Positions 5,381 to 6,685 of a stretch of 64,000 nucleotides of DNA are shown here, in pieces; the first letter of the stretch is position 1, and every line of letters starts with the position of its first letter. The notes beneath the pieces are model-generated. The model ran no database searches. It saw only the letters and a list, made by a program, of their open reading frames with translations, and was not told the DNA's origin. A program made the translations under genes and the position numbers. Source of the DNA: Minisyncoccota bacterium (GTDB lineage Bacteria; Patescibacteriota; Minisyncoccia; Phycocordibacterales; GWA1-40-21); assembly GCA_041663045.1 (NCBI GenBank), contig JBAZRH010000001.1, positions 212,403 to 276,402 of the forward strand, in the 5' to 3' direction.

Positions 5381-6685
5381 TTATTTTATATATTTTTCTA
5401 AAAACTCTTTCTTAAATTCTGCAAAATTTCCATTCAGAATTGACTGACGGATTTTTTTGACGAGATTTACTATAAAATGAATGTTGTGAATTGATGAAAG
5501 GGTACCGGCGAGCATTTCTTTGCCGTGGAAAAGGTGCGCGATATAAGCTCTTGTGAAATTTTTGCAAGTATAACATTCGCAACCTTCGTCTATCGGCGAC
5601 AAATCTTCTCTATATGCTGTGTTTGTAATATGTATTTTACCGTTTTTTGTATAGATAGTGCCGTTTCTACCGAGGCGTGTCGGTAAAACGCAATCAAAAA
5701 GGTCAACACCATTCTCAATTCCCATAAATAAATCTTCCGGTTCACCGATGCCGAGAAGGTGGCGAGGTTTTTCTTCCGGCAAAATCTCGTTGACCCATTT
5801 TACTGCTGTCGACATATCTTCTTTTGCAAATGAACCACCGATACCGAAGCCGTCAAACTTTTTTCCATCAACTTCCATTTCTGAAATTACTCTTGCCGAT
5901 TTTTTGCGAAGTTTTTCTTCACGGCCACCTTGGATTATGCCGAAAAGGGCTGGGGGCTGAAAGCTCCTCAAGGTCTCACCTTTCCCGTCGCTCCGCTCCT
6001 CCTCAAGGAGAGACCTTTTCCCGCTTTCATGAGACCTTGAGGAGCTCTCAATCAATCGATGATGTTCTTTCAGTGATCTTTTTGCCCAGTCATGCGTCCT
6101 TTCTAGCGCCTCCTCCTGATATTTCAAATCCTCGCTTGGCGAAGTGCATTCATCAAAGGCAAAAATCATATCCGCACCGAGATTATGCTGTATCTGCATA
6201 GATTTTTCCGGAGTAATATAATGCACCGAGCCGTCCAAGTGTGATGTAAAAGAAACTCCATCTTGGCCTATTTTTGCAAGGCGTGGCGCGAGAGTATCGT
6301 CAAATCTTTCCGGAATTAAAAGCGAAGGATCAGTAATCTGTAAAACTTTTGAAATTCCTTTTTTATATGCGGCACCGAGCGAGAAAACCTGAAAGCCACC
6401 AGAGTCGGTCATTGAAGGCCCCGCCCAATTCATCATTTTATTTAATCCACCCATTTTCTTTACGAGCTCATCACCCGGCTGAAGATACAAATGATATGTA
6501 TTCGAAAGCACAACTTGAGTCCCGGCTTCTTTGACCTGCTCCGTAGAAACAGACTTTACCGTGCCCTTTGTTCCTACAACAACAAAAGCCGGCGTTTCTA
6601 TAATACCGTGTGCTGTTTCTATAATCCCCGCCCGCCCGAGCGTTTTCGGAAGCTTTTTTGTTATGGTGAATTTCATACTTGACAT
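5381..6685 (-). CDS. tgt: Queuine tRNA-ribosyltransferase (tRNA-guanine transglycosylase) carrying an in-frame insertion of about 30 aa
   Basis: 434 aa. [20 protein letters not shown] and zinc-site CxCxxC...H motifs are present. Extra low-complexity segment [32 protein letters not shown] relative to canonical Tgt. Confidence 0.9.
5961..6047. repeat. GC-rich palindromic element inserted in-frame within tgt
   Basis: Perfect 17-bp inverted repeat agctcctcaaggtctca (5962-5978) / tgagaccttgaggagct (6030-6046). It encloses an inner hairpin with arms aaggtctcacctt / aaggagagacctt. The 17-mer tcaaggagagacctttt recurs at 34666-34682. Confidence 0.7.

Follow-up and report, generated by a model that had tools for sequence, protein, structure and literature searches.

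A palindromic segment in the tgt reading frame of a Minisyncoccota bacterium is probably a copy of a hairpin repeat dispersed among Patescibacteria

The tgt gene, encoding tRNA-guanine transglycosylase, of a Minisyncoccota bacterium (GenBank assembly GCA_041663045.1, contig JBAZRH010000001.1) contains a GC-rich palindromic segment within its reading frame, which raises the question of where such a segment came from and how a housekeeping gene accommodates it. The locus was analysed within a stretch of 64 000 nucleotides (positions 212 403–276 402 of the contig, hereafter the window), on which an earlier note had described the segment as a member of a small structured repeat family. The analysis indicates that the segment is probably a copy of a small non-autonomous hairpin repeat, resembling repetitive extragenic palindromic (REP) sequences and Rickettsia palindromic elements (RPEs), that has spread within and between genomes of Patescibacteria, the candidate phyla radiation (CPR). 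The host gene and the part of it that is affected are the following.

5381–6685, minus strand: tgt, the host gene; an open reading frame (ORF) of 434 amino acids in which the catalytic and zinc motifs can be aligned to Tgt proteins of solved structure.
5951–6052, minus strand: variable Tgt loop, amino acids 212–245; in orthologues empty, occupied by the type-1 element in either orientation, or occupied by other hairpin families.

Comparison with solved bacterial Tgt structures (E ~1e-92) aligned the DSGG, AFDEC and FDCVLPTR motifs as well as the zinc motif CxCxxC...H. The variable loop comprises 34 residues in the window Tgt versus 6 in the nearest empty-site orthologues (403–406 amino acids), which show ..EHNKLNTENKIALFGIVQGG at this place, a net gain of about 29 amino acids that agrees with the roughly 30 added residues of the earlier note. 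Its statement that canonical Tgt proteins run continuously from WAKRS to ALFGI was not borne out, since 15–20 residues or so lie in between. In an AlphaFold2 (AF2) model the predicted local distance difference test score was below 50 over amino acids 219–241, immediately preceding strand 246–251, which bears Gln203 in the alignment to Z. mobilis Tgt. Judged by TIM-barrel topology, the insert would adjoin a barrel strand at its N-terminal end, which would place it on the opposite face from the active site. No insert found in tgt contained an in-frame stop, and lengths were always a multiple of three (60 nt or 20 codons in locus L002 compared with the empty locus L004; about 87 nt or 29 codons in the window).

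The borders of the repeat unit were set by comparing the DNA of orthologous loci, short matches being located by blastn-short, and resolved the segment into the following parts.

5959–6028, minus strand: canonical type-1 hairpin element, 70 nt, defined by identity to loci L001, L002 and L003, by folds and by the family alignment.
5970–5982: 5' arm of the 13-bp stem, AAGGTCTCACCTT (AAGG-TCTCA-CCTT), from sequence comparison.
5983–6004: 22-nt loop, TCCCGTCGCTCCGCTCCTCCTC, common to 39 of the 39 type-1 copies recovered with this loop as search key.
6005–6017: 3' arm of the 13-bp stem, AAGGAGAGACCTT (AAGG-AGAGA-CCTT), overlapping the start of a 17-mer (6003–6019) common to a second locus.
6030–6050: 21-nt inverted partial duplication of the element end 5958–5978, encoding SSSRSH(E); absent from P0009/P0022-type alleles.

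On the plus strand the type-1 unit reads GAAAGC-TCCTC-AAGGTCTCACCTT-(TCCCGTCGCTCCGCTCCTCCTC)-AAGGAGAGACCTT-TTCCC-GCTTTC. From the outside inwards it consists of an outer stem of 6 bp, an internal loop of 5x5, a 13-bp stem of the form AAGG-N5-CCTT and the 22-nt loop. The inner stem, which pairs over 13 bp with one A.A mismatch, is the nested hairpin recognised in the earlier note. The element was identical to those of L002 and L003 (64/64, same orientation) and nearly so to that of L001 (69/70, opposite orientation). The predicted RNA fold of the 111-nt tgt region had an energy of -53.1 kcal/mol (z = -4.5 versus shuffles), and an internal direct repeat CTCCTCAAGG(N5)CCTTT is present inside the segment. 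Its GC content reached 66% in 50-nt windows versus a mean of 37.8% for the whole window, and it came first among some thirty GC peaks of this width that reached 0.62 or more. Rfam models at gathering thresholds detected only two tRNAs in the whole window, and a permissive scan of 5900–6110 gave only sub-threshold matches resembling microRNA precursors, generic hairpins. The perfect 17-bp inverted repeat said to bound the segment is indeed exact (5963–5979/6031–6047) and grows to 21 bp with one mismatch (5958–5978/6030–6050), but its limits are not those of the repeat unit. It exists because the extra 21 nt at 6030–6050 are an inverted copy of the element's other end, and is thus a lineage-specific inverted partial duplication. 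A similar SSSRSH(E)-type remnant is held by the closest insert-bearing tgt alleles (P0002–P0005).

A survey of the loop in 120 Tgt orthologues (75–100% identical) gave the following distribution.

57/120: short ancestral-type loop (..EHNKLNTENKIALFG.., proteins of 403–406 amino acids).
25/120: type-1 element in forward orientation, read as the same peptide with conservative changes; the count takes in nested composites, such as LVPRSFSEVG within the element in P0016.
6/120: type-1 element as the reverse complement, read as an unrelated peptide.
32/120: other inserts, 20 of them recognisable as other element types (VIPAEAGIQ, KVESEKLKV, NILKNVGMSE, LRQAQGK, HYGVIANTIMN) and the remaining 12 unclassified.

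The loci compared are orthologous, since the gene order FKBP-tgt-...-uvrB was kept among them. In the closest pairs of empty and filled sites the insert was essentially the sole difference, DNA identity outside the loop being 91% (L172/L173) and 87% (L175/L174). Between the window, L002 and the reverse-complemented L001 the element was identical at 59–60 of 60 positions, far above the flanking 102 nt (71–86%) and the genes (76–80%), and the high identity ended at the element borders with no recombination tract. At L001 the element lies in the opposite orientation at the same site and is read as a different peptide, and all tgt alleles share the junction ATT GAA AGC ... GCT TTC in both orientations. 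Orthologous copies also showed a compensating stem change from GGTCTC/GAGACC to GGACTC/GAGTCC, and the orthologues bearing the segment had the hairpin at the DNA level. A crude neighbour-joining tree calculated without the loop placed forward-element alleles in at least 10 places, mixed with empty alleles. In the same tree the reverse allele P0034 was sister to forward alleles with the SSSRS remnant, which suggests inversion of the element in situ. Tgt contains a second insertion relative to solved structures (6301–6396, amino acids 97–129, about 27 residues), modelled by AF2 with low confidence; it was conserved in 120/120 orthologues and looks like an old, fixed, lineage-specific loop, not a repeat.

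Copies of the element were also found outside tgt. A scan of metagenome contigs keyed on the loop matched 47 loci, one of them in tgt, leaving 39 distinct copies after de-duplication; the constancy of the loop among these is imposed by the search pattern. An interpretation of its GCG-N-AGC part as a GNA mini-hairpin was dropped, the variable base being the sole free position in that pattern, and tgt copies not chosen by it show variation elsewhere in the loop as well. Among copies with identical loops, the stems differed greatly and nevertheless remained complementary. At the five central positions of the stem (N5) 21 variants occurred, with three to four pair types at each variable position, and these positions were paired in 74% of cells versus 45% (maximum 53%) over 1000 shuffles of the arms among copies. 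Pairs were counted by script on loop-anchored arms because a MAFFT alignment of the 39 copies mis-registers a subfamily with an extra C in the loop. The AAGG/CCTT pairs closing the loop were constant, although the search pattern imposed them only partly, and loop length was 22–25 nt. Copies from the same sample had common stems (L156/L166/L167; L132a/b; L159a/b), and the whole 70-mer was identical in L156 and L166, which lie on different contigs of one sample. The same-sample copies L156/L166 and L132a/b also have their outer stems in common; the outer stems therefore belong to the element, and their interpretation as an inverted target duplication made at insertion was rejected. Viral contigs gave no loop match and one general hairpin match, and so no link to phage. 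The type-1 copies within genes had the following hosts.

UvrC: two sites, both occupied in some and empty in other related contigs; one uvrC (L132) contains two copies.
UvrB: two sites.
LigA: identified by sequence.
GatB: the element forms an insertion of about 10 amino acids in the alignment to PDB 3h0l.
Alanyl-tRNA synthetase-like C-terminal fragment and glycosyltransferase-like ORF: both assigned by eye only.
Surface protein: twice.
Tgt: one metagenome locus.

All intragenic copies kept the frame and were free of stops, those of type 1 using the single open forward-strand frame while the other two forward frames contain TGA; this scoring is partly circular, because a frame-breaking copy would count as intergenic. 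The proposal of the earlier note that such elements can reside in essential genes without breaking the frame is thus supported by copies in tgt, uvrB, uvrC, ligA and gatB, among others. Intergenic type-1 copies were located 0–50 nt past stop codons. A second scan, keyed on the stem, of species-representative genomes found at least 120 loci. Among the matches listed, 58 of 80 record titles were Patescibacteria lineages and 51 of 132 hairpins lay in frames open for at least 60 codons on each side, most of the latter being of a second type, in which the 13-bp AAGG-N5-CCTT stem encloses a loop of about 11 nt (unit length 41 nt versus 70 nt for type 1). Pfam searches with ten hosts of short-loop copies identified UvrA (twice), UvrC, LigA (twice), LepA (twice), leucyl-tRNA synthetase (leuS) and a P-type ATPase; one host remained without a match. 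The LepA copies, from two genomes, occupy the same site following the GTPase domain, and other intragenic copies lie at domain borders, beside UvrA_inter and between the OB and HhH domains of LigA. In some genomes the 13-mer AAGGTCTGACCTT or AAGGTGAGACCTT forms tandem direct arrays with 22–26 nt spacing, not a single hairpin (L108 3063–3163; L092 265–321). The type-1-bearing LigA of L156 has a second low-complexity insert, ERGPTSRTEPRGRTPGSR (amino acids ~255–275), which may be another hairpin-derived segment.

A second family member lies in the window itself, beside dnaX (34712–35815, minus strand), next to a hairpin of another family.

34660–34710: type-2 hairpin (hairpin proper 34665–34705), stem TCAAGGAGAGACCTT / AAGGTCTCACCTTGA of 15 bp with the same A.A mismatch and an 11-nt loop; GAAAT/ATTTC lengthens the stem.
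34626–34655: adjoining hairpin of a second family, GGATTCCACT-CTTC-AGTGGAATGACAGAG, the family being TGGATTCC...GGAATGACA.

The type-2 hairpin lies 6 nt past the dnaX stop codon and folds with -24.1 kcal/mol (z = -7.0). As the earlier note had reported, the 17-mer TCAAGGAGAGACCTTTT occurs exactly at 6003 and 34665 and the 13-mer at 5970 and 34691. The paired-arm pattern occurred twice in the window and in none of 100 shuffles. A 15-mer match at 30161–30175 is probably due to chance (E = 0.04), and an uptake-signal hypothesis was rejected because the density, two arm pairs over 64 kb, argued against it. The hairpin at 34665–34705 has both arm sequences of the tgt copy, including the A.A mismatch, but in swapped order, and so represents a sister element rather than a copy or an inversion of the tgt unit. 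The assignment of this locus to the family holds for the arms, but the hairpin is of a different type, with its own 11-nt loop. On the minus strand that loop reads AAATCTATAAA, resembling AAATCTACAGA and AAATCTGGAGA in type-2 hairpins of other genomes. The hairpin was not called in a terminator scan, and as it has no T-tract it is not a canonical terminator. Hairpins of the AAGG and GGAATGACA families stand side by side both at 34626–34705 and in the tgt loop of L001 (L001 3700–3745), and this adjacency, intergenic in the window and intragenic in L001, recalls the clusters formed by REPs (bacterial interspersed mosaic elements). In ORFs the 'TGGATTCC...GGAATGACA' family is read as VIPAEAGIQ or WIPxxxGMT-type peptides. 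Two GC-rich stretches (34262–34371 and 35942–36045; 0.68 in 50-nt windows) flank dnaX and tRNA-Gln; they gave no Rfam match at gathering thresholds and might represent divergent structured RNAs, such as signal recognition particle RNA beside dnaX.

If the segment is a copy of a dispersed hairpin repeat, as we consider probable, its history may be pictured as follows. Copies of this selfish or neutral repeat would be sifted by selection and persist only where little harm results, either just past stop codons or, within long housekeeping proteins, in frame in loops at the surface and linkers between domains. The tgt element would have landed in the loop preceding the beta-strand with the preQ1-binding Gln, where it would be transcribed and translated as a hydrophilic, probably disordered loop of about 20–29 residues. 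Insert lengths in multiples of three and the exclusive use of stop-free frames by intragenic copies argue for such translation. The hairpin itself appears to be maintained, in view of compensating stem changes between lineages, uniform stems within a genome or sample and the constant 22-nt loop, and the palindrome may rearrange in place by inversion and partial inverted duplication, which would have given the outer 17-bp inverted repeat of the window. The likeliest mode of copying would be an enzyme or a replication process acting on the single strand once folded. Compensating stems, inversion and partial inverted duplication would all be compatible with recognition of the folded strand by its structure, or with template switching at the palindrome.

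Several observations count against a mobile repeat. Neither a transposase nor a target-site duplication nor a terminal tag turned up, so that mobility is read solely from the distribution of the copies; only two family members occur within the 64-kb window. That all tgt alleles have one junction in common might go back to a single old insertion, with allelic recombination and losses afterwards, instead of to several insertions, and the neighbour-joining tree in which the alleles appear scattered is crude. Conservation of the loop is in part an ascertainment artefact, the loop being the search key; the strong conservation of the element could indicate a host function, and the case for translation of the segment is drawn from sequence.

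Host function is the alternative to which we give most weight, but we regard it as unlikely. The hairpin would be a structured nucleic-acid motif under selection because it benefits the host, for example by protecting mRNA 3' ends, by pausing ribosomes at domain boundaries or by binding a protein. Such a role would account for compensating stem changes beside a constant loop, for element identity of 98–100%, far above that of the flanks, and for the position of copies just past stop codons or at domain borders, as after the LepA GTPase domain in two genomes, at UvrA_inter and between LigA OB and HhH. Close orthologues (87–91% DNA identity) nevertheless manage without the element, either orientation works at the tgt site, and the same tgt loop is host to seven or more unrelated types of insert; nor does the hairpin match an Rfam family, and at the second locus, lacking a T-tract, it is no canonical terminator. 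An origin confined to tgt appears rather improbable: replication template-switching would have created the palindrome locally, homologous recombination among related Paceibacteria would have spread it only as a tgt allele, and similar sequences elsewhere would be convergent. The single common junction in both orientations, the partial inverted duplication of the window allele, of the kind made by template switching, and the sister relation of the reverse allele P0034 to forward alleles retaining 'SSSRS' would all be expected from such an origin. It is contradicted by the 38 further distinct copies with the same 22–25-nt loop in unrelated genes and intergenic DNA, by near-identical copies at unlinked loci of one sample (L156/L166), and by the exact end of high identity at the element borders, with no recombination tract.

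The earlier note had also raised removal of the segment as an intein- or intron-like element. Some yeast mitochondria bypass GC-rich hairpin inserts during translation, and the strong hairpin in tgt would draw both flanks together. Even so, excision from the RNA, protein splicing or translational bypassing before the mature protein is formed is very unlikely, as insert lengths are multiples of three without an in-frame stop, only one stop-free forward-strand frame is ever used in genes, 29 amino acids are far below intein size (at least ~130 amino acids) and include no splice-junction residues, and Rfam scans yielded generic hairpins but no intron model. Hardly tenable is the view that the segment is ordinary lineage-specific protein sequence with incidental symmetry in its DNA. 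The 25 orthologues with the same peptide and conservative changes are what it would predict, but it is already contradicted by the six orthologues in which the reverse-complement DNA gives an unrelated peptide at the same site, to which the intergenic copies and the stem covariation across copies may be added. Spread of a hairpin repeat thus continues to be the explanation we favour. A more far-reaching version is speculative: AAGG-N5-CCTT hairpins might be substrates of an as yet undescribed CPR-wide single-strand mobilisation system, with the constant loop as recognition or cleavage site and the N5 stem as a co-evolving specificity code, homogeneous per genome and divergent between genomes, by which loops of essential proteins, among them Tgt, UvrABC, LigA, GatB and LepA, would be continually reshaped in minimal genomes.

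Among known repeats, RPEs (Ogata et al., 2000) are palindromic repeats of ~105–150 bp confined to Rickettsia, many of them in frame in unrelated housekeeping genes; according to reviews, they encode a conserved peptide that the host protein's fold and function can accommodate, and neither a transposase nor a target-site duplication is known (PMC10969869, PMC3184786). Compared with these descriptions of RPEs, the CPR element is likewise palindromic, dispersed in a reduced genome and in frame in unrelated genes, but its unit is shorter (41–70 nt), its hosts are Patescibacteria rather than Rickettsia, it combines a constant loop with compensating stem variation, and several families crowd one loop, with both orientations at one site. 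REPs tagged with GTAG or CGTC, which are associated with RAYT (Y1/HUH) transposases, are small species-specific hairpins mostly just downstream of coding regions, of which an intragenic minority, notably in uvrA, uvrB, uvrC and other replication and repair genes, encodes 20–30 amino acids, and CPR is not among the phyla reported to contain them (Di Nocera et al., 2013; PMC3733652). The element studied here resembles REPs as a small imperfect palindrome downstream of coding regions (6 nt past the dnaX stop; 0–50 nt past stops for type 1) and in its presence inside uvrA, uvrB and uvrC. Unlike tagged REPs, it has a longer type-1 loop (22–25 nt) and the window copies have no GTAG or CGTC at the foot, CGTC occurring only inside the type-1 loop; among 162 AAGG-stem hairpins the foot carried one GTAG and three CGTC, versus about two expected per tag and strand, which is no more than chance.

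Miniature inverted-repeat transposable elements, or MITEs, with in-frame ORFs, such as enterobacterial repetitive intergenic consensus sequences, Coxiella QMITE and Anabaena MITEs, are short, non-autonomous, have inverted-repeat ends and can fuse in frame to host ORFs (PMC10969869, PMC5896051). The CPR element shares terminal inverted repeats (arms of 13 bp and a 6-bp outer stem), but it is far shorter than most MITEs and has no known parent insertion sequence, for which no dedicated search was made. No target-site duplication was seen by eye in filled and empty tgt pairs or in the same-sample copies L156/L166 and L132a/b. Of the earlier description as a MITE/REP-like family, the dispersed structured repeat stands, with many unlinked copies in other CPR genomes, whereas REP/RPE-like is a better label than MITE, because neither target-site duplication nor terminal tag was found. 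Coding palindromic repeats occur in Methanocaldococcus jannaschii as well. In Nematomorpha mitochondria, coding palindromes take the form of long perfect inverted repeats (PMC6649704). In both cases inverted repeats are tolerated and read through in coding sequence as in CPR; unlike the nematomorph repeats, the CPR element is a dispersed hairpin family with a conserved loop, and hosts and sequences differ. The element works like RPEs and intragenic REPs but is not a member of either as defined, and no paper on such elements in CPR was found in a search of a library without subscription journals.

Other palindromic inserts were observed in the window. A truB-like gene (62043–62966, minus strand) encodes about 57 extra residues compared with solved TruB structures (query 98–165 versus chain 93–103), specified by GC-rich palindromic DNA, especially at 62478–62690. 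One part of this insert is a hairpin, GGATCCCCGC-ATT-CGCGAGGATGACAGA, giving SSPVCHPRECGDPGI as peptide. The other part, an element about 110 nt long, contains a perfect inverted repeat of 18 bp, ATACTGCCCTTTCCGGAA, and its peptide DIFLLKNSSCSAQPASQ also occupies the Tgt hot-spot loop of orthologue P0116. Further in-frame palindromic families are therefore present in the same genome. UvrB (2837–4933, minus strand) has an insertion of about 27 amino acids after 'DIRP' (3556–3643), made up of two 30-nt units in tandem that both contain a CCACGR/TCGTGG inverted repeat, and in L149 a type-1 element lies at the equivalent UvrB site. Of all hairpins in the window, the strongest is an intergenic palindrome of 63 nt (8337–8399; ..ATAGCGACCGCGC TTC GCGCGGTCGCTAT..), with a 30-bp stem in a scan allowing at most one mismatch and a 3-nt loop, beginning at the 3' end of an ORF that ends at 8341.

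Genomes of CPR bacteria are among the smallest and most streamlined bacterial ones. Their essential genes still hold several families of hairpin repeats, which are apparently translated, and single loops act as hot-spots, extending to a whole superphylum a phenomenon known mainly from Rickettsia, in the form of RPEs, and from a few REP-rich Proteobacteria. Such inserts inflate protein length and create spurious 'lineage-specific' motifs, and can mislead marker-gene alignments and phylogenies of CPR. Polymorphisms in the presence or absence of the element are usable as markers in strain-level population studies, and the constant loop set against compensating stems offers a handle for finding whatever copies these elements.

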